A stretch of 64,000 nucleotides of DNA, taken from the NCBI RefSeq assembly GCF_036507355.1, contig NZ_AP027877.1; one strand, 5' to 3'. The notes beneath the pieces are model-generated. The model saw only the letters and a program-made list of their open reading frames with translations, made no database searches and was not told the origin of the DNA. Of the stretch, positions 8,616-40,894 are shown piece after piece. The stretch comes from Escherichia coli. GTDB lineage: Bacteria; Pseudomonadota; Gammaproteobacteria; Enterobacterales; Enterobacteriaceae. The position numbers were made by a program, and so were the translations under genes. Numbering within the stretch: the stretch's first letter is position 1; every line of letters starts with the position of its first letter.

Positions 8616-10376
8616 TTAACCGCGTAATTCGTGCGCCCGACGAAAACGACCTTCGTAATCGAACACTTTTTCACGCACTTGCCAGTACTGACCTTTCATG
8701 CGGGCAACGACAAAATCCGGGTGTCGCAATAAGGCTTGCTGGGCGAGGATATCGGCGGCGGTGATCCAGCGCAGAGGGATGCCCGGTGTGCGCGTATGCG
8801 GGCGGATAAAAAGCTGCTCGAAGGCAGTTCGCTGGGCGGGCGTTTGCAGACGGAAACGCTCACTCACATCCGCGCCGTCTTCATCGTAATAGGTGATTTT
8901 CAACCATTCGCCTTTCTCGTCGTGCCCATGCTGCAAAGACATGCCGCTACAGCGTAATACCAGCGCGTCTTTCAGTCGTAGCGCCGCTTTTAACATATCG
9001 TCAGGATCAACCAGTACCGTGTCACATTCGCGGCAGCGGCGAGCGGCAATATCATTTTCTGCGTTACATTGCGGGCAATTTTTAAAACGGAAACGGAAGT
9101 CACACTGTTCGCGATGACCGTCGTCATCTTCAAACCATCCCTGACAGCGGCGACCAAAGTGTTCAATCAATGTCCCGTCGGCGGTCGTTTTCCCCCAAAA
9201 GGTGTTGGCAAAACCGCAGGCAGGGCAGAAAACCTGTACCGGAACGTTGTCACTTTTGCCTTTCGGTGTACCAACTTCCGGCGCGTAGAGATCGTGAGGA
9301 TTACCCGCATAATCAAGAATTAAGCAATCAGTCTTGCCAGGAGCGAGACGCAGACCGCGCCCGACAATTTGTTGGTAAAGACTCACTGATTCGGTAGGGC
9401 GCAGAATGGCGATAAGATCGACGTGCGGGGCGTCAAATCCGGTGGTCAGTACCGCGACGTTGACCAGATAGCGAAAACGCTGGGCTTTAAAATCTTCAAT
9501 TAACACATCGCGCTCAGCGCCGGGGGTGTCGCCAGTAATCAGTGCAGCATCTTCGGCGGGTAGTAATCCCACAATCTCTTTTGCGTGTTCAACGGTGGCG
9601 GCGAAAATCATCACCCCTTTGCGCGTTGCAGCAAACTCCATAATCTGGCTGATGATGTGCGGGGTAATACGTTGTTGTTTTTTTAGCTCGCGGTTGAGAT
9701 CGGCTTCGCTGAATAGCCCGTTACTCTGTGCCTGCAAGCGGCTGAAATCGTATTGCACTACTGGCATATCCAGTCGTTCTGGCGGCGTCAGATAGCCGTG
9801 TTTAATCATATAACGCAGCGGCAGTTCATAAATGCAGTCACGGAAAAGGGCTTTCTCATCGCCGCGTACCATGCCGTGATAATGGAACTGGTAGATCCAG
9901 CCTTTGCCCAGTCGAAAAGGCGTGGCAGTCAGCCCCAGCAGGCGTAAGTGGGGATTCACTTTTGTCAGGTGAGTGAGGATTTGCTGATACTGGCTCTCTT
10001 CATCGTCACCAATACGGTGGCATTCATCGACAATCAACAGCGAAAATTCACCCTGAAAGGCATCAAGATTACGGGCGACCGACTGCACGCTGCCAAATAC
10101 CACTTTACCGTGGCTCTCTTTGCGCTTTAGCCCGGCGGCAAAAATATCGGCTTCCAGCCCCAGCGCCTGATACTTTGCATGGTTTTGCGCCACCAGTTCT
10201 TTAACGTGTGCCAGCACCAGCACGCGACCACGAGCCAGCCGCGCAAGTTCCGCTATCACCAGGCTTTTACCTGCACCGGTGGGCAGCACGATAACGGCAG
10301 GGGTTTTATGACGACGAAAATGGTTGAGCGTGGCATCCACGGCTTCTTGCTGATATGGGCGGAGTGTAAAAATCAT
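8616..10376 (-). CDS. radD: Superfamily-2 helicase-like DNA repair ATPase RadD (YejH)
   Basis: 586 aa. Walker A PTGAGKS, a DECH box, and a C-terminal Cys-rich zinc motif (CPACG...CPQC...CRECD). Confidence 0.93.
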
Positions 10377-10524
10377 GGTCTCGCGTAGGTAGATTATTCT
10401 GCTAATAGTATGCCACGGTTCTTTTTCCCTTGAGGGAAGTTATTAGACCGCTATACTGGGCAGACAACAGTTCAGATTTTCGGGTCAATGCCCGACCTCC
10501 GTTTTTACAGGCAAAATCACACAC

Positions 10525-11220
10525 ATGCGACTTGATAAATTTATCGCACAGCAACTCGGCGTTAGCCGTGCTATTGCCGGGCGTGAAATCCGCGGCAATC
10601 GTGTTACCGTCGATGGCGAAATCGTCCGTAATGCAGCGTTCAAACTGCTTCCTGAACATGATGTCGCTTACGATGGCAACCCGCTGGCGCAGCAACACGG
10701 TCCACGTTACTTCATGCTCAATAAGCCTCAGGGCTATGTTTGCTCCACGGACGACCCTGATCACCCAACGGTGCTCTATTTTCTTGATGAACCAGTGGCG
10801 TGGAAACTGCACGCAGCAGGGCGGCTGGATATCGATACCACCGGTCTGGTGCTAATGACTGATGATGGTCAGTGGTCGCACCGCATTACTTCTCCGCGCC
10901 ATCATTGCGAGAAGACCTATCTGGTGACGCTGGAATCACCCGTAGCTGACGATACGGCAGAGCAATTTGCTAAAGGCGTGCAGCTGCATAACGAAAAAGA
11001 TCTCACTAAGCCGGCGGTGCTGGAAGTGATTACCCCAACGCAGGTTCGTCTGACCATCAGCGAAGGGCGTTATCATCAGGTGAAACGCATGTTCGCCGCT
11101 GTGGGTAACCATGTGGTTGAGCTGCATCGTGAACGTATTGGCGGCATTACGCTGGATGCTGATTTAGCCCCCGGTGAATATCGTCCGTTAACTGAAGAAG
11201 AAATTGCCAGCGTCGTCTAA
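10525..11220 (+). CDS. rsuA: 16S rRNA pseudouridine-516 synthase RsuA
   Basis: 231 aa. S4-like N-terminus and the catalytic GRLDIDTTG motif. Confidence 0.95.
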
Positions 11221-27147: not shown

Positions 27148-27412
27148 GCTGGTCGATCACTGGAAGAGGAAGACGCGGAGTTTACGCTGCTTGTCAGAAA
27201 ATAAACAGACAGCGAAATCAAAAGCGCCACGAATAATCAAAATGCCATTTCACTGTTGCTGATTGGCTGCTGACGCTGCTGAAATGAAATTGCTGATAAC
27301 GGATTTTCCCATCAGCAATTAGGAAAAATGACAAAAAATTGTGCAGCACATCAAACTTTTGCTCATAACTTTACGGCTTTCCTTGCGTGCTGAAACAGAA
27401 GTATTATGCTTT

Positions 27413-31474: not shown

Positions 31475-31612
31475 AGTGTTCATGTTCTGTGCATCCCGTC
31501 ACAAATTCCTCGCTTTTGTAATTCTGGCATTTAATCGCATTTTGTGAGCCTGCTCAAATCTGCCCGCTTTGCCTCTCTGGCGGCAATTTACTTTACGTAA
31601 AACATGCATACT

Positions 31613-31647
31613 ATGAGCACATGTTTAAATATGAACACATGTTTAAA
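31613..31647. repeat. 18-bp-period tandem direct repeat upstream of psuK
   Basis: ATGAGCACATGTTTAAA-T-ATGAACACATGTTTAAA. The two 17-mers differ at 1 position. Confidence 0.8.
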
Positions 31648-31714
31648 CTGTCTTTGCAGTATCTATATTCTTGTGGATTGACAGGGTTGGTAATTTTTTA
31701 CCAGAGGACGTGCT

Positions 31715-32656
31715 ATGCGCGAAAAGGATTATGTCGTAATTATAGGCTCGGCGAATATTGATGTCGCCGGATATTCACATGAATCATTAAATTATGCGGA
31801 TTCAAATCCAGGTAAAATAAAATTTACGCCTGGTGGGGTAGGGCGCAATATTGCACAAAACCTGGCGTTGCTGGGTAATAAAGCCTGGCTACTGAGCGCC
31901 GTAGGCAGTGATTTTTATGGCCAATCGCTGCTAACGCAAACCAATCAATCTGGCGTTTATGTCGATAAATGCCTGATTGTGCCGGGAGAAAATACGTCGA
32001 GCTATTTATCATTACTCGATAATACCGGTGAAATGCTGGTTGCTATAAATGACATGAATATTAGCAACGCTATTACAGCTGAATATCTCGCACAGCACCG
32101 TGAATTTATTCAGAGGGCAAAGGTCATTGTCGCGGACTGTAATATCAGTGAAGAGGCACTGGCATGGATTCTGGATAATGCTGCCAACGTACCCGTATTT
32201 GTCGATCCGGTTTCAGCGTGGAAATGTGTCAAAGTGCGCGACCGTCTAAATCAGATCCACACTCTGAAGCCAAACCGCCTTGAAGCGGAAACACTGAGTG
32301 GGATTGCGCTGTCAGGGCGTGAAGATGTGGCAAAAGTTGCTGCCTGGTTCCATCAACATGGCCTGAACCGACTGGTATTGAGCATGGGCGGCGATGGCGT
32401 TTATTACAGCGATATCAGCGGTGAAAGTGGCTGGTCTGCGCCGATCAAAACCAATGTTATTAATGTTACCGGAGCGGGCGATGCCATGATGGCGGGACTT
32501 GCTTCGTGTTGGGTAGACGGAATGCCGTTTGCCGAATCTGTTCGTTTCGCACAGGGATGTTCGTCAATGGCGCTCTCCTGTGAATACACCAATAACCCCG
32601 ATTTATCGATTGCCAACGTTATATCGTTAGTGGAGAACGCAGAATGTCTGAATTAA
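31715..32656 (+). CDS. psuK: Pseudouridine kinase PsuK (YeiC), PfkB family
   Basis: 313 aa. GGVGRNIA and TGAGDA motifs. Confidence 0.93.
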   Translation: MREKDYVVIIGSANIDVAGYSHESLNYADSNPGKIKFTPGGVGRNIAQNLALLGNKAWLLSAVGSDFYGQSLLTQTNQSGVYVDKCLIVPGENTSSYLSLLDNTGEMLVAINDMNISNAITAEYLAQHREFIQRAKVIVADCNISEEALAWILDNAANVPVFVDPVSAWKCVKVRDRLNQIHTLKPNRLEAETLSGIALSGREDVAKVAAWFHQHGLNRLVLSMGGDGVYYSDISGESGWSAPIKTNVINVTGAGDAMMAGLASCWVDGMPFAESVRFAQGCSSMALSCEYTNNPDLSIANVISLVENAECLN

Positions 32657-33582
32657 AAATTTCCCCTGAATTATTACAAATTTCCCCGGAAGTGCAGGAC
32701 GCTTTAAAAAACAAAAAACCGGTTGTGGCGCTGGAATCGACCATTATTTCTCACGGGATGCCGTTCCCACAAAATGCCCAGACCGCAATTGAAGTTGAAG
32801 AAACTATTCGTAAACAGGGCGCAGTACCTGCCACTATCGCCATTATTGGTGGCGTGATGAAAGTGGGTTTAAGCAAAGATGAAATTGAATTACTGGGTCG
32901 TGAAGGGCATAACGTGACCAAAGTTAGTCGTCGCGATTTACCTTTTGTTGTTGCCGCCGGAAAAAATGGCGCAACCACTGTGGCTTCAACGATGATTATT
33001 GCGGCGCTTGCCGGAATTAAAGTATTTGCCACCGGGGGAATTGGTGGTGTTCATCGCGGGGCGGAACATACCTTCGATATTTCTGCCGATTTGCAAGAAC
33101 TGGCAAATACTAATGTCACCGTTGTTTGTGCCGGGGCGAAATCTATTCTCGATTTAGGATTAACCACTGAGTATTTAGAAACCTTCGGTGTGCCGTTAAT
33201 TGGCTATCAGACTAAAGCGCTGCCTGCGTTTTTCTGCCGCACCAGCCCGTTTGACGTCAGCATTCGTCTCGACAGCGCCAGCGAAATTGCCCGTGCAATG
33301 GCGGTGAAATGGCAAAGCGGGCTGAACGGTGGCCTCGTGGTAGCGAACCCGATCCCGGAACAGTTTGCTATGCCGGAACACACTATCAATGCGGCGATCG
33401 ATCAGGCGGTAGCTGAAGCTGAAGCGCAGGGTGTTATTGGTAAAGAAAGTACGCCATTCCTGCTGGCGCGCGTTGCTGAGCTGACCGGCGGTGACAGCCT
33501 GAAATTCAACATCCAGCTGGTGTTCAACAACGCCATTCTGGCGAGCGAAATTGCCAAAGAATATCAGCGTCTCGCGGGTTAA
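32644..33582 (+). CDS. psuG: Pseudouridine-5'-phosphate glycosidase PsuG (YeiN)
   Basis: 312 aa, IndA-like family. Overlaps psuK by 13 nt. Confidence 0.93.
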   Translation: MSELKISPELLQISPEVQDALKNKKPVVALESTIISHGMPFPQNAQTAIEVEETIRKQGAVPATIAIIGGVMKVGLSKDEIELLGREGHNVTKVSRRDLPFVVAAGKNGATTVASTMIIAALAGIKVFATGGIGGVHRGAEHTFDISADLQELANTNVTVVCAGAKSILDLGLTTEYLETFGVPLIGYQTKALPAFFCRTSPFDVSIRLDSASEIARAMAVKWQSGLNGGLVVANPIPEQFAMPEHTINAAIDQAVAEAEAQGVIGKESTPFLLARVAELTGGDSLKFNIQLVFNNAILASEIAKEYQRLAG

Positions 33583-33675
33583 TTTCTGACGGGCAGAAAG
33601 CCGTCGCCCGTACTGATCATACATACCGAAACCTGGCGCTGACGCCGGGTTTACTGGCATGAAGGGAAAATCATT

Positions 33676-34926
33676 ATGGATATAATGAGAAGTGTTGTGG
33701 GGATGGTGGTGTTACTGGCAATAGCATTTCTGTTGTCGGTAAATAAAAAGAGCATCAGTTTGCGCACGGTTGGAGCCGCACTGCTGCTGCAAATCGCTAT
33801 TGGTGGCATCATGCTCTATTTTCCGCCGGGAAAATGGGCAGTAGAACAGGCGGCATTAGGCGTTCATAAAGTGATGTCTTACAGTGATGCCGGTAGCGCC
33901 TTCATTTTTGGTTCGCTGGTTGGGCCGAAAATGGATGTCCTCTTTGACGGTGCGGGTTTTATCTTCGCCTTTCGCGTACTTCCGGCGATTATCTTCGTCA
34001 CTGCGCTCATTAGTCTGCTGTACTACATTGGCGTGATGGGGCTGCTGATTCGCATCCTTGGCAGCATTTTCCAGAAAGCCCTCAACATCAGCAAAATCGA
34101 ATCTTTTGTCGCAGTCACCACTATTTTCCTCGGGCAAAATGAGATCCCGGCGATCGTTAAACCGTTTATCGATCGCATGAATCGAAACGAGTTGTTTACC
34201 GCAATTTGTAGCGGGATGGCGTCCATTGCTGGTTCGATGATGATTGGTTATGCCGGAATGGGCGTACCAATTGACTACCTGTTAGCGGCATCGCTGATGG
34301 CGATCCCCGGCGGTATTTTGTTTGCACGAATTCTTAGTCCAGCAACCGAGCTTTCGCAGGTCACGTTTGAAAATCTGTCGTTCAGCGAAACGCCGCCAAA
34401 AAGCTTTATCGAAGCAGCGGCGAGCGGTGCGATGACCGGGCTGAAAATCGCCGCCGGTGTGGCGACGGTGGTCATGGCGTTTGTCGCAATTATTGCGCTG
34501 ATTAATGGCATTATTGGCGGAATTGGCGGCTGGTTTGGTTTTGCCAATGCCTCTCTGGAAAGTATTTTTGGCTATGTGCTGGCACCGCTGGCGTGGATCA
34601 TGGGTGTGGACTGGAGTGATGCCAACCTTGCGGGTAGCCTGATTGGGCAGAAACTGGCGATTAACGAATTCGTCGCTTACCTGAGTTTCTCCCCATACCT
34701 GCAAACGGGCGGCACGCTGGAAGTGAAAACCATTGCGATTATCTCCTTTGCGCTTTGTGGTTTTGCTAACTTTGGTTCTATCGGTGTTGTCGTTGGGGCA
34801 TTTTCGGCTATTTCGCCAAAACGTGCTCCGGAAATCGCCCAGCTTGGTTTACGGGCGCTGGCAGCAGCAACGCTTTCCAACCTGATGAGCGCGACCATTG
34901 CCGGGTTCTTTATTGGTTTAGCTTGA
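33676..34926 (+). CDS. psuT: NupC-family nucleoside (pseudouridine) transporter PsuT (YeiM)
   Basis: 416 aa, polytopic. A close paralogue of the nupX product in this window. Confidence 0.92.
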   Translation: MDIMRSVVGMVVLLAIAFLLSVNKKSISLRTVGAALLLQIAIGGIMLYFPPGKWAVEQAALGVHKVMSYSDAGSAFIFGSLVGPKMDVLFDGAGFIFAFRVLPAIIFVTALISLLYYIGVMGLLIRILGSIFQKALNISKIESFVAVTTIFLGQNEIPAIVKPFIDRMNRNELFTAICSGMASIAGSMMIGYAGMGVPIDYLLAASLMAIPGGILFARILSPATELSQVTFENLSFSETPPKSFIEAAASGAMTGLKIAAGVATVVMAFVAIIALINGIIGGIGGWFGFANASLESIFGYVLAPLAWIMGVDWSDANLAGSLIGQKLAINEFVAYLSFSPYLQTGGTLEVKTIAIISFALCGFANFGSIGVVVGAFSAISPKRAPEIAQLGLRALAAATLSNLMSATIAGFFIGLA

Positions 34927-36763: not shown

Positions 36764-36973
36764 GTGTTGATAACAAGCCGGGTCAGTATCGCAAAATGCA
36801 GGCCCGGCTATTTCTGAGGGGCAGAAAGCCGTCGCCCAATATGACATGAAGAGATAATAACTATGGATGTCATGAGAAGTGTTCTGGGAATGGTGGTATT
36901 GCTGACGATTGCGTTTTTGGTGATGCTGCCAACTTACTGATTTAGTGTATGATGGTGTTTTTGAGGTGCTCCA

Positions 36974-37249
36974 GTGGCTTCTGTTTCTATCAGCTGTCCC
37001 TCCTGTTCAGCTACTGACGGGGTGGTGCGTAACGGCAAAAGCACCGCCGGACATCAGCGCTATCTCTGCTCTCACTGCCGTAAAACATGGCAACTGCAGT
37101 TCACTTACACCGCTTCTCAACCCGGTACGCACCAGAAAATCATTGATATGGCCATGAATGGCGTTGGATGCCGGGCAACAGCCCGCATTATGGGCGTTGG
37201 CCTCAACACGATTTTACGTCACTTAAAAAACTCAGGCCGCAGTCGGTAA
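36974..37249 (+). CDS. insA: IS1 InsA
   Basis: 91-aa ORF identical to the InsA of copy A. Confidence 0.95.
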
Positions 37250-37671
37250 CCTCGCGCATACAGCCGGGCAGTGACGTCATCGTCTGCGCGGAAATGGACG
37301 AACAGTGGGGCTATGTCGGGGCTAAATCGCGCCAGCGCTGGCTGTTTTACGCGTATGACAGGCTCCGGAAGACGGTTGTTGCGCACGTATTCGGTGAACG
37401 CACGATGGCGACGCTGGGGCGTCTTATGAGCCTGCTGTCACCCTTTGACGTGGTGATATGGATGACGGATGGCTGGCCGCTGTATGAATCCCGCCTGAAG
37501 GGAAAGCTGCACGTAATCAGCAAGCGATATACGCAGCGAATTGAGCGGCATAACCTGAATCTGAGGCAGCACCTGGCACGGCTGGGACGGAAGTCGCTGT
37601 CGTTCTCAAAATCGGTGGAGCTGCATGACAAAGTCATCGGGCATTATCTGAACATAAAACACTATCAATAA
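37168..37671 (+). CDS. insB: IS1 InsB (expressed as the InsAB' frameshift fusion)
   Basis: 167-aa ORF identical to the InsB of copy A. A6C slippery site at 37225-37231. Confidence 0.95.
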
Positions 37672-38904
37672 GTTGGAGTCATTACCTGCGTTTTTACTGT
37701 CAGTAAACAAGAAGAAGATCAGCCTGCGTACCGTTGGCGCGGCGTTAGTGTTACAGGTTGTGATTGGCGGGATTATGCTTTGGTTACCGCCAGGGCGTTG
37801 GGTCGCTGAAAAAGTCGCTTTTGGCGTGCATAAAGTGATGGCGTACAGCGATGCAGGTAGCGCATTTATCTTCGGTTCGCTGGTCGGGCCGAAAATGGAC
37901 ACGCTGTTTGATGGCGCAGGATTTATCTTTGGTTTCAGGGTGTTACCGGCAATTATCTTCGTCACCGCGCTGGTGAGTATTCTCTATTACATCGGTGTGA
38001 TGGGGATCTTAATTCGCATTCTCGGCGGTATATTCCAGAAAGCATTAAATATCAGCAAGATCGAGTCATTCGTCGCGGTCACTACCATTTTCCTCGGGCA
38101 AAACGAAATTCCGGCGATCGTCAAACCCTTTATCGATCGTCTGAATCGCAATGAATTATTTACAGCGATTTGTAGTGGCATGGCCTCGATTGCTGGTTCG
38201 ACAATGATTGGTTACGCCGCACTGGGCGTGCCTGTGGAATATTTGCTGGCGGCATCGTTAATGGCGATCCCAGGCGGGATCTTGTTTGCCCGCCTGCTAA
38301 GCCCGGCTATGGAATCTTCGCAGGTTTCTTTTAATAACCTCTCTTTCACCGAAACACCGCCAAAAAGCATTATTGAAGCTGCCGCGACAGAGGCAATGAC
38401 CGGGCTGAAAATCGCCGCAGGTGTGGCGACAGTAGTGATGGCATTTGTCGCCATCATTGCGTTAATTAACGGTATTATCGGCGGCGTTGGCGGCTGGTTT
38501 GGTTTTGAACATGCCTCGCTGGAATCCATTTTAGGTTACCTGCTGGCCCCACTGGCGTGGGTGATGGGTGTTGACTGGAGTGATGCGAATCTTGCCGGGA
38601 GTTTGATTGGTCAGAAACTGGCAATAAATGAATTTGTCGCTTATCTCAATTTCTCACCCTATCTGCAAACGGCTGACAAGCTGGATGCTAAAACCGTGGC
38701 GATTATTTCCTTCGCGTTGTGCGGTTTCGCTAACTTTGGTTCTATCGGGGTGGTGGTGGGGGCGTTTTCTGCGGTTGCGCCACACCGTGCGCCGGAAATC
38801 GCCCAACTTGGTTTACGCGCGCTGGCGGCGGCGACACTTTCTAATCTGATGAGTGCCACCATTGCCGGGTTCTTTATTGGTTTAGCGTAGTGTGCGATTT
38901 ATGA

Positions 38905-38938
38905 GCCGGATAATATGCGGTCAAGCGTCGAATCCGGC
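38905..38938. repeat. REP-like hairpin between convergent nupX and yeiI
   Basis: GCCGGAT...ATCCGGC inverted repeat. Its position is analogous to the hairpin after psuT. Confidence 0.5.
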
Positions 38939-38945
38939 AACATTG

Positions 38946-40034
38946 TTACACCATTGGCATTAATGAAAGCGCGTTATCGGCAGACAAGGTAGGGTTATTT
39001 AAGCTGCCGCTGGCGCGTGAAATTGCCGCGCAGGCCATCGCAAAACGGGCGCTGTCACGGAAATTGTTTCCTTCCAGAAAGCTATATACCAGGCCCGCCA
39101 TAAAACCATCGTCAGCACCAAAACTGTCTACTGTCGTATGCGCTGGTGCGGTCAGCAAAAATTGTTCTCCATCCTTTTCGCTGCAATAAACTGACTCATC
39201 GGGCAAATAAACAAACAGTTGCTGAACACCTTGCTGATGCAACGCATTCACTGCAGCATTACGGTCAGCATCGCTGGTGATCGCCTGTCCCCATAAAATT
39301 TCCAGCTCCGGTAAAGTGGGTTTCAGGGTGTGAATATGCGCCAGCCAGTGTTTGATTTTGCCCGCTTTGAATTCTGAAACGGTATCGACAAACACCGGGA
39401 TCTCATCAGCGAGGGTAAAGACCCATTCCAGCGCCTCGGCTGTCAGGTTGCAATCAGCCAGTACCACGCCCGCATGACGAAGTAAATCGCGCGACCCGTT
39501 CAGTAGTTGCGGTGTCAACTGTTCCAGCAGATGGGTATCGTTAATCGCCAGCACGGTTTGATCGTCTCGATTGGCAATTGCCAGATACGTCGATGTGCTT
39601 TGACCATGCAAACGAACGCAGCCGGAGACATTCACGCCGGCACGGCGCGTTTCTTCCAGGAGCATTTCGCCATAAAAGTCATCGCCAATCACTGAAAGCA
39701 AATGGACGTCGCGGCCTAACAGCGCCAGATTGTGGGCGATATTGCGTCCAACGCCGCCTGCCGAGCAATGAATTGTACCGGGATGAGAAGCCGATTGCGG
39801 GTAACGGATATCCGCCATCCCGCGAATATCCATATTGATTGTCCCCACCACTACGCAGTATTCCTGCTCGGTGAGAATGTAACCTTTGCCTTTAATCCGG
39901 CCTTTGCGCATTAAATCCATAATATGCGCCGCAACGCGCGAACGGCTGATTTGCAGCATGTCCGCAATTTCGTTCTGCTGAATCAGCGGGTTACGCCGTA
40001 AAATTGCAAGGATCTCCTTTTCCCGGTTATTCAT
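38946..40034 (-). CDS. yeiI: HTH domain fused to a PfkB-family sugar/nucleoside kinase, YeiI (function unknown)
   Basis: 362 aa. The N-terminal ~55 aa form a winged-HTH-like region (REKEILAILRRNPLIQQNEIADMLQISRSRVAAHI). The rest aligns by eye to PsuK (GGVGRNIAHNLALLG, VLAIND, ADCN, PVFVDTVS, IHTLKP, GADDGFMAG). Confidence 0.9.
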   Translation of the reverse strand: MNNREKEILAILRRNPLIQQNEIADMLQISRSRVAAHIMDLMRKGRIKGKGYILTEQEYCVVVGTINMDIRGMADIRYPQSASHPGTIHCSAGGVGRNIAHNLALLGRDVHLLSVIGDDFYGEMLLEETRRAGVNVSGCVRLHGQSTSTYLAIANRDDQTVLAINDTHLLEQLTPQLLNGSRDLLRHAGVVLADCNLTAEALEWVFTLADEIPVFVDTVSEFKAGKIKHWLAHIHTLKPTLPELEILWGQAITSDADRNAAVNALHQQGVQQLFVYLPDESVYCSEKDGEQFLLTAPAHTTVDSFGADDGFMAGLVYSFLEGNNFRDSARFAMACAAISRASGSLNNPTLSADNALSLMPMV

Positions 40035-40036
40035 CT

Positions 40037-40894
40037 TCAGGCTACCGCTTTTTCAGTTTGTTGCGCTTTCAGCCAGGCGATCTCTTCTGCCCAGATATCC
40101 GGGTTGATGGTTTCGAGGATCAGCGGAATGCCGTCGAAACGGTCGTCCTGCATGATCCAGCGGAACGCATCATGACCGATATTGCCTTCACCGAGGCTAT
40201 GATGGCGGTCAACGCGGCTGCCAAAGGTGCTTTTCGCATCGTTAAGGTGCATCCCGCGCAGATACTTAAAGCCGACAATACGGGCAAAATCAGCGAACGT
40301 TTTCTCGCATTCGGCTGGAGTACGCAAATCATACCCGGCAGCGAAAGCATGGCAGGTATCAATGCAGACGCCGACACGGGATTTATCTTCCACGCCGTCG
40401 ATAATCGCCGCGAGATGTTCGAATTTAAACCCTAAGTTACTGCCCTGACCGGCGGTGTTTTCAATCACCGCGGTCACACCTTGAGTTTTATCCAGCGCAA
40501 TGTTGATGGATTCGGCAATACGCGCAAGGCAATCCTCTTCTGAAATCTGCATCAGATGGCTGCCAGGGTGGAAGTTGAGCAAAGAAAGCCCCAGCTGTTC
40601 GCAACGCTGCATTTCATCTATAAAGGCATCGCGCGATTTTTCCAGAGCTTCAGTGACCGGATGTCCGAGGTTAATCAGATAGCTGTCGTGGGGAAGAATT
40701 TGCGCCGATGTGTAGTGATATTTTTCACAGGCGGCTTTGAATTCATCGATGGTTTGCGTCGTGAGCGGTGCGGCACGCCACTGACGTTGGTTTTTGGTGA
40801 ACAAGGCAAACGCGGTTGCGTCGATTTCGGCGGCGCGAATTGCGGCATTTGCCAGACCGCCAGCAGCACTAACGTGCGCTCCAATGTATTTCAT
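40037..40894 (-). CDS. nfo: Endonuclease IV
   Basis: 285 aa, [21 protein letters not shown]... Recognised as the K-12 sequence. Confidence 0.95.

Follow-up and report, generated by a model that had tools for sequence, protein, structure and literature searches.

Comparative evidence for Escherichia coli YeiI as a candidate transcription factor of the pseudouridine operon psuK-psuG-psuT

We analyzed the yeiI gene of Escherichia coli in a stretch of 64,000 nucleotides (nt) from contig NZ_AP027877.1 (assembly GCF_036507355.1), which is called the window hereafter. YeiI carries a helix-turn-helix (HTH) in front of a PfkB kinase domain. The comparison of sequences and gene neighborhoods somewhat favors the view that YeiI is a one-component transcription factor of psuK-psuG-psuT, descended from an HTH-fused, self-regulating pseudouridine kinase. 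An earlier note on this DNA had offered either a ligand-sensing one-component regulator or a moonlighting enzyme, and of its options the regulator would fit best. The view was built on the constant association of yeiI with the psu operon, on a tandem operator predicted upstream of psuK, and on a kinase domain that largely keeps its nucleoside pocket and whose phosphate-site motifs have decayed.

The 2-nt gap between nfo and yeiI and the two domains of YeiI are already annotated and known, and NCBIfam has its own YeiI equivalog model, NF007416. Apparently new are three points: its assignment to the psu operon, the operator, and the way its motifs have decayed. YeiI has been counted among the hypothetical transcription factors of K-12 (PMC6055005) and described as an uncharacterized pseudouridine kinase relative (PMC9061257). 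A literature search on YeiI function or an HTH-PsuK regulon found no study, and a search for a regulator of the psu operon found none described. A paper on LeuO names "two LTTRs (YdcI and YeiI)" (PMC6698644); YeiI is not of the LysR type, and "LTTR YeiI" is probably a slip for the neighboring gene yeiE.

HTH-fused relatives and gene neighborhood of yeiI

Residues 1-48 of YeiI matched Pfam HTH_24 (E 1.2e-10, 41.2 bits against a gathering score of 21.9). In the AlphaFold2 (AF2) model (predicted local distance difference test score, pLDDT, 87.8), helices 3-14, 20-27 and 31-43 and a hairpin were followed by a low-confidence linker (53-56) and then by the PfkB fold. With a profile match above threshold and a three-helix-plus-wing fold, this domain belongs to the winged HTH domains of the Lrp/AsnC-MarR-like type, as the earlier note had proposed for the approximately 55 N-terminal residues. 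The HTH-PfkB fusion that it described was likewise borne out by the Pfam domains and the model. The isolated HTH gave weak matches only to PDB sequences (E 0.04 or worse), and structure searches for an HTH-PfkB protein returned kinase-domain matches only, with no solved fusion among them.

A protein search returned 774 relatives, and nearly all full-length ones had the HTH_24 and PfkB architecture. We fetched 80 genomic loci and mapped the neighboring genes by BLAST against the window's own proteins. Sixty-six loci lay outside Enterobacteriaceae (group B: Morganella, Gilliamella, Serratia, Yersinia, Photorhabdus, Xenorhabdus, Pasteurellaceae, Chromobacterium, Aquitalea, Shewanella, Vibrio, Aeromonas, Oscillospiraceae and others, with Firmicutes represented). 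The fusion was located immediately upstream of psuG in 56 of these 66 loci and often overlapped psuG. All canonical catalytic motifs were intact in group B fusions, which, as judged from these motifs and neighbors, are pseudouridine kinases carrying an HTH. Those upstream of psuG (in Yersinia, Serratia, Morganella, Pasteurellaceae, Shewanella, Vibrio, Aeromonas and Oscillospiraceae) resemble YeiI in having two domains, about 360 residues and an HTH 60% identical to that of YeiI; they are uncharacterized and annotated as "pseudouridine kinase" or "PfkB family carbohydrate kinase". The identity of YeiI to fusions of other taxa was 60.5% in the HTH versus 42.3% in the kinase part, and 20 HTH positions were invariant in both the YeiI group and the group of other taxa.

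YeiI proper (group A) was found in Escherichia, Citrobacter, Enterobacter, Kluyvera, Leclercia, Yokenella, Phytobacter, Entomohabitans and one Brenneria sp. Group A genomes also encode an HTH-less PsuK in psuK-psuG-psuT, and yeiI lies beside this operon, convergent with psuT. In E. coli and a few others, rihB, nupX and yeiL are inserted between yeiI and psuT. Every YeiI-type gene seen adjoins psuT-psuG-psuK, and in three lineages, Salmonella, Affinibrenneria and Brenneria sp., it does so without nfo. In Salmonella enterica (locus L084, 7056-12315), yeiI-psuT-psuG-psuK is located in an island with relB/parE toxin-antitoxin and transposase genes, and these four genes may move as a unit. The yeiI-psu module of Affinibrenneria salicis follows an unrelated gene cluster, and the gene upstream of yeiI in Brenneria sp. 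is a formate-dehydrogenase-like open reading frame (ORF) 160 nt away. Because the lineages without nfo keep the psu neighbors, the constant partner of yeiI is the psu operon and not nfo.

In a neighbor-joining (NJ) tree of the kinase domains, the HTH-less PsuK proteins fell within the group formed by the enterobacterial and pasteurellacean HTH-PsuK proteins (78% bootstrap), and the YeiI clade (100%) formed a long branch, sister to this group (79%).

A second HTH-PfkB paralogue of 355 residues with canonical catalytic motifs was observed in Xenorhabdus (loci L037, L038, L040 and L042; match at about 10001-11068). It has neither an adjacent psuG nor a recognizable operator, and the region equivalent to Tyr97 of the E. 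coli pseudouridine kinase is changed from STYL to SICN. This paralogue may be a fusion with a different nucleoside specificity.

Nucleoside pocket and phosphate site of the kinase domain

Pfam PF00294 matched residues 58-348 of YeiI (E 4e-68, 230 bits against a cut-off of 25.8), and the AF2 model contains the alpha/beta core and the protruding beta-sheet lid of the PfkB family. The PDB sequences nearest to residues 55-359 were 7vkp and 7vva, both E. coli pseudouridine kinase (E 2e-66). Foldseek with the YeiI model gave a template modeling (TM) score of 0.94 to 7vtd and 0.87 to E. coli ribokinase (1rka). PsuK (YeiC, or EcPUKI; 7vkp, 7vtd and 7vva) shares with YeiI the PfkB fold, the beta-clasp lid and the gene cluster, and it is 37.7% identical over the trimmed kinase-domain alignment.

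The published pseudouridine contacts of EcPUKI are N14, D16, S30, Y97, N112, M114, N143, K170 and the catalytic D256, among which S30 comes from the neighboring subunit and reads N1 of pseudouridine (PMC9061257). Eight of these nine contacts are kept in YeiI (N67, D69, S83, Y150, N165, N196, K223 and D309), the catalytic Asp included, and the sole changed contact is M114, which is T167 in YeiI. The "kinase of unknown substrate" of the earlier note is narrowed by this comparison to a protein whose nearest relative is pseudouridine kinase and whose pseudouridine contacts are largely retained.

The phosphate site is altered. In this family, the GxGD glycines bind the donor phosphates, the Asp is catalytic, and NxxE serves magnesium binding (PMC5931981). 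The Asn of NxxE is present in all 66 fusions outside Enterobacteriaceae; it is Thr or Ala in all YeiI orthologues and Ser in Affinibrenneria. The glycine-rich ATP-phosphate loop ([ST]xGxxG) is absent from YeiI, which has YLPDESV at this place. The GxGD motif reads G306-A-D308-D309 in YeiI: its catalytic Asp is retained, and Asp stands in place of the second Gly in every orthologue. All three changes are fixed in the window and in the other YeiI-type loci (15/15) and occur in none of the 66 related fusions; the Affinibrenneria orthologue, aligned separately, has SxxE and GADE. The net charge of the three motifs is -5.6 in YeiI proteins versus -2.0 in the other fusions. Unlike YeiI, PsuK has no HTH, and in the kinase domain YeiI is set apart from it by TxxE, the missing GxxG loop, GADD and the M114 to T change. 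Because the phosphate-donor site is acidic and poor in glycine, the domain is probably a sensor.

The region DSFGADDGFMAGL of YeiI fits the PROSITE PfkB signature-2 pattern as a loose match. The earlier note had described a complete PfkB domain that retains its signature; the fold and this loose pattern stand, but the catalytic machinery does not, since NxxE, GxxG and GAGD are altered. YeiI scored 254 bits on the PsuK equivalog NF007355, well short of its cut-off of 540. A psuK mutant is unable to use pseudouridine although yeiI is present (PMC12506659), and therefore YeiI is no substitute for PsuK as a kinase. We rejected YeiI as a second pseudouridine kinase on account of the motif decay, the equivalog score and this mutant phenotype.

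A different question is whether YeiI could be an active bifunctional "trigger enzyme", which phosphorylates pseudouridine or a close analogue and also represses, as the group B fusions probably do. Asp309, the GG motif, the Glu of NxxE and the nucleoside contacts are retained, and the signature-2 pattern is matched. The Asn of NxxE is, moreover, substituted in some active members of the family (PMC5931981). We nevertheless consider the trigger enzyme rather unlikely, as the three phosphate and magnesium motifs are altered together and are acidic in every orthologue, a dedicated PsuK is already present in the genome, and the equivalog score and the psuK mutant (PMC12506659) speak against such activity.

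Improbable, in our estimate, is a kinase for some other small molecule, such as a modified pyrimidine nucleoside taken up by NupX and processed by RihB, with an HTH that regulates those genes or yeiI itself. The yeiI gene adjoins nupX-rihB-yeiL in E. coli and Shigella, and the base pocket is altered by the M114 to T change and, in some orthologues, by SNPG to SHPG. However, only some YeiI genomes have rihB-nupX-yeiL, and most loci of Citrobacter, Enterobacter, Kluyvera, Salmonella and Affinibrenneria lack it between yeiI and psuT. The matrix scan described below gave no operator-like site upstream of these three genes, and the Ser that reads N1 of pseudouridine is kept.

Operator pair upstream of psuK

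The upstream regions of group B fusions share a palindrome, present as two tandem sites AAACAnnTGTTT 18-19 bp apart and close to the ATG. An exact AAACA-N2-TGTTT was found in 13 of 53 dereplicated group B upstream regions and CAAAC-N4-GTTTG in 11, against two or fewer in shuffled sequences. The site nearly always comes as a pair, downstream of a TTTACT/TATAAA-type promoter and ahead of the start codon. Firmicutes have AAGCA as the half-site, and their recognition helix is different too.

We built a 16-nt position weight matrix (PWM) from HTH-psuK promoter sites of other taxa only and scanned it over the window. The best match, ATGAACACATGTTTAA, and the second-best match, ATGAGCACATGTTTAA, form a tandem pair 69-102 nt upstream of the psuK ATG. 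This was the sole pair of at least 8 bits at 17-20 bp spacing in the window, and none of 300 windows simulated with a first-order Markov model held a pair of at least 10 bits. The scan, at 8 bits or more, found no site upstream of yeiL, rihB, nupX, psuT, nfo or yeiH. The promoters of yeiL, rihB, nupX and nfo that the earlier note had listed for tests of YeiI binding are therefore without a candidate site; a tandem pair occurs in the window at the psuK promoter alone.

Of the 14 other group A loci aligned, 13 have kept the operator pair, TTTACT and TAnnAT ahead of their HTH-less psuK, and the flanking sequences diverge. The genera that keep the pair include Escherichia, Citrobacter, Enterobacter, Kluyvera, Yokenella, Phytobacter, Leclercia and Brenneria sp. 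The exception is Entomohabitans, for which the upstream alignment was not obtained; the PWM gives a 15.9-bit site upstream of psuK in this genome. The best PWM site of the Salmonella and Affinibrenneria loci is likewise upstream of psuK. The group B kinases have the same type of palindromic operator in tandem pairs, but they lie within the psuKG operon and appear autoregulated, whereas YeiI is encoded by a separate gene with no operators ahead of it. PsuK has no DNA-binding domain in group A genomes, and YeiI is the only neighbor that keeps the matching HTH.

Other PWM matches were observed in the window. Those within yeiI (39211) and yeiH (41260) are in coding sequence, the former recurring only in two Escherichia loci, and both were treated as chance. 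A 12.3-bit match at 27351-27366, TCAAACTTTTGCTCAT, lies upstream of fruBKA (fruB) as a single site without a partner and is probably chance or the site of another regulator.

A recurrent adaptive single-nucleotide polymorphism (SNP) of E. coli in the mouse gut, 2257444 A>C in earlier K-12 MG1655 numbering, is located between psuK and fruA (PMC7518454, PMC9509342). With a coordinate offset of 1978, which was fixed with three srlR mutations from the same tables, the SNP maps to position 31589 of the window, 126 nt upstream of the psuK ATG, and changes TTTACT to TTGACT. Its position in the -35 hexamer supports the inferred TTTACT-16-TACTAT assignment as a working promoter. Operator 1 would overlap the -10/start region of this promoter, with operator 2 just downstream, which would be a repressor-like geometry. 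PsuG was one of the five proteins with the strongest upregulation in uropathogenic E. coli (UPEC) grown in urine, and urine contains pseudouridine (PMC9149909). On this ground we regard the psu operon as inducible.

It could be supposed that another regulator binds the psuK operators and that the HTH of YeiI has a different target or none; the predicted palindrome is AT-rich and short, and binding by YeiI is a computational prediction. This is slightly less probable still than a kinase for another small molecule, since the promoters from which the motif was derived have no consistently linked regulator other than the fused HTH. YeiL, moreover, is missing from many genomes that keep the operators, and from Firmicutes to Gammaproteobacteria the half-site and the recognition helix change together, a correlation confounded by phylogeny.

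Table 1 Features of the yeiI and psu regions in the window.
Feature	Position	Strand	Basis
Inferred psuK promoter, TTTACT (-35), 16 nt, TACTAT (-10)	31587..31614	plus	Kept in every YeiI-carrying genus; arranged as in HTH-psuK promoters
Predicted operator 1, ATGAGCACATGTTTAA	31613..31628	plus	PWM 13.2 bits, second-best in 64 kb; conserved across genera
Predicted operator 2, ATGAACACATGTTTAA	31631..31646	plus	PWM 14.8 bits, best in 64 kb; 18 bp from operator 1
psuK	31715-32656	plus	ORF and annotation; predicted regulated operon
psuG	32644-33582	plus	ORF and annotation; predicted regulated operon
psuT	33676-34926	plus	ORF and annotation; operon psuK-psuG-psuT = 31715..34926
yeiI coding sequence	38946..40034	minus	362-residue ORF; NCBIfam NF007416, 812 bits; "sugar kinase" yeiI in E. 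coli genome annotation
PfkB (ribokinase-like) domain, residues 58-348	38991..39863	minus	Pfam PF00294; closest to pseudouridine kinase
PfkB signature-2 region DSFGADDGFMAGL, residues 303-315	39090..39128	minus	GAGD to GADD; catalytic Asp309 retained
Degenerate ATP-phosphate loop, VYLPDESV replacing LS(M/L)GxxG(V/I)	39189..39212	minus	Alignment
Degenerate NxxE, T240-L-P-E243	39306..39317	minus	Alignment of orthologues and fusions
Winged HTH, residues 1-55	39870..40034	minus	Pfam HTH_24 and AF2 model
Putative recognition helix, residues 31-43	39906-39944	minus	AF2 model
nfo stop/yeiI start junction, TGA-AG-ATG	40032..40039	minus	Sequence; stop TGA 40037-40039, ATG 40032-40034
nfo (endonuclease IV)	40037..40894	minus	285-residue ORF, upstream of yeiI; NCBIfam NF002199 deoxyribonuclease IV, 556 bits, and Pfam AP_endonuc_2

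The nfo-yeiI junction and a model for psu regulation

The junction on the minus strand reads GTA GCC TGA AG ATG AAT AAC, so that the nfo stop codon precedes the yeiI ATG by 2 nt on the same strand, and the sequence and ORFs confirm what the earlier note had reported. The yeiI start codon is backed by the motif M-x-x-R-E-(K/Q)-x-I-L, which was kept in 81 of 81 homologues examined. A spacing of 2 nt as such is ordinary for operon neighbors. The nfo stop was 0-2 nt ahead of the yeiI ATG in 12 of the 13 nfo-linked genomes compared (the window not counted), with Entomohabitans as the exception (a gap of about 77 nt), and because the junction is conserved across genomes, the spacing is more than chance. 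The yeiH-nfo-yeiI region was found in 5421 of 5426 complete E. coli genomes (best identity 99.5%).

The predicted Shine-Dalgarno (SD) pairing of yeiI in E. coli and Shigella is -3.2 kcal/mol versus -5.3 to -8.7 for the neighbors, the weakest locally. A stop codon within a few nt of the start and a weak downstream SD, both seen here, are the marks of a coupled gene pair. The 2-nt gap has no space for a promoter or terminator. No terminator was found in the 3' part of nfo, and a consensus promoter scan of the same part gave three sites against 3.8 expected, none of them convincing. The co-transcription and translational coupling proposed by the earlier note are plausible on these grounds, and nfo and yeiI are likely co-transcribed, with termination and re-initiation at the junction. 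We read this coupling as a possible way of making small amounts of a regulator and not as a functional partnership.

The close spacing also raises the question of a functional pairing with DNA repair. Although the tight junction is widely kept in nfo-linked genomes and nfo is a member of the SoxRS regulon, we consider it very improbable that the two genes act together in DNA repair or oxidative-stress defense, and we rejected the functional link: nfo linkage is restricted to part of Enterobacteriaceae, being absent in Salmonella, Affinibrenneria, Brenneria sp. and all 66 loci outside the family, and there is no operator near nfo or yeiH.

Further observations concern this region. In the convergent gap of 55 nt between the yeiI and nupX stops (38891-38945) there is an inverted repeat, GCCGGAT...ATCCGGC, whose loop is about 20 nt long and which lacks a T-run; it is not a canonical intrinsic terminator. 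yeiI products are truncated or extended in some E. coli lineages (P0026, 289 residues and 236 member sequences; P0055; P0001, 489 residues), one of which is named from E. coli O33; these variants may be natural pseudogenes and could serve as natural knock-outs. nupX (37673-38890) and psuT (33676-34926) are close paralogues, and transporters at the nupX position in other genera match PsuT at about 90% (loci L002, L011, L014 and L015). An IS1 element (36919-37686) has its insertion point about 56 nt inside nupX, where 9 bp of target are duplicated, and a further IS1 end is at 2234. Because of this insertion, nupX is disrupted in this strain; yeiI, nfo and psuKGT are intact. The presence of several IS1 ends, taken with a best E. 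coli identity of only 99.5%, points to a Shigella or to an E. coli lineage rich in IS elements.

The fuller proposal, which we hold more tentatively than the regulatory assignment itself and at slightly below even confidence, is that YeiI is a pseudokinase transcription factor derived from a duplicated HTH-pseudouridine kinase. PsuK would have kept catalysis and lost the HTH, and YeiI would have kept the HTH and the pocket while its donor site decayed; YeiI would then be the missing sensor that induces psuKGT in urine and gut. In the mechanism that we propose for the regulatory assignment, YeiI would dimerize through the beta-clasp lid, as EcPUKI does, and the winged HTHs of two dimers on the tandem operators GAACAyrTGTTy, 18 bp apart, would repress psuKGT from sites overlapping the -10/start region. 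Pseudouridine would enter the retained nucleoside pocket, where Ser83 of the partner subunit would read N1; the dimer would close, the HTH domains would shift, and the DNA would be freed. A pseudouridine-induced quaternary closure is documented for EcPUKI, in which the inter-subunit distance changes from 66 to 51 Å (PMC9061257). With an acidic, glycine-poor donor site, ATP would be handled inefficiently, and the domain would act as a sensor and not as an efficient kinase. Expression of YeiI in E. coli and Shigella would be low and would depend on read-through from nfo, with translation starting again at the ATG 2 nt past the nfo stop, and the nfo link would be an arrangement for expression and not a shared function.

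Several points weigh against the regulatory reading. Asp309 and the loose signature persist, so residual or altered kinase activity is possible. In Enterobacter, one Leclercia and Brenneria sp., the PWM score upstream of psuK does not reach 11 bits, although alignment still shows the sites. The hexamers TTTACT and TACTAT match only 8 of 12 consensus positions, below the threshold of the promoter scan, which prefers TTTAAA-16-TATATT at 31642-31669, just downstream of operator 2. The NJ tree is compatible both with an older paralogue and with a duplication inside Enterobacteriaceae. An RNA polymerase site lying between nfo and yeiI is listed from in vitro genomic SELEX (PMC3946193), so that an internal promoter is possible. 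Finally, in the accounts of the mouse-gut experiments the repressors frlR, srlR and dgoR repeatedly acquired loss-of-function mutations, while the psu system showed only the promoter SNP, and the text and those supplementary files examined contain no yeiI loss-of-function allele (PMC7518454, PMC9509342). This pattern is awkward for a simple repressor; YeiI could instead be an activator or act both ways, or its loss could be costly.

YeiI joins a DNA-binding domain to an effector domain that resembles an enzyme of the pathway, as enzyme-derived one-component regulators do, and at the computational level the paired palindromes at psuK, which occur nowhere else in the window and are kept from genus to genus, provide the conserved operator of such a regulator. 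By descent YeiI belongs to the PfkB family, closest to pseudouridine kinase; in working principle it resembles the enzyme-derived regulators. BirA and NadR are enzyme-repressors in which a DNA-binding domain is fused to an enzyme of the regulated pathway and the substrate or product is the effector, as proposed for YeiI. They differ from YeiI in fold, and both are catalytically active. The ROK repressors Mlc and NagC, and NrtR (PMC2330246), are like YeiI in that a kinase-like or Nudix-like domain with reduced or lost catalytic motifs serves as effector sensor beside an HTH; ROK proteins have an actin-like ATPase fold and NrtR a Nudix-like one, and neither is PfkB. RbkR, an archaeal riboflavin kinase and regulator found by comparative genomics (PMC5397151), likewise combines an N-terminal winged HTH with a small-molecule kinase and controls its pathway. 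Unlike YeiI, it is archaeal, has an unrelated CTP-dependent riboflavin kinase fold, and retains a demonstrated enzyme activity.

These results correct machine-learning annotations that name YeiI a second pseudouridine kinase. The psu promoter is a recurrent target of adaptation in the mouse gut, and the operon is under selection there. For yeiI (b2160 in E. coli K-12), the comparative evidence offers a concrete hypothesis, namely that YeiI binds 31613-31646 and responds to pseudouridine. If confirmed, YeiI would be the first characterized PfkB-based transcription factor, and together with PsuK it would show cleanly how an enzyme-repressor has divided into one protein that is purely enzyme and another that is purely sensor.

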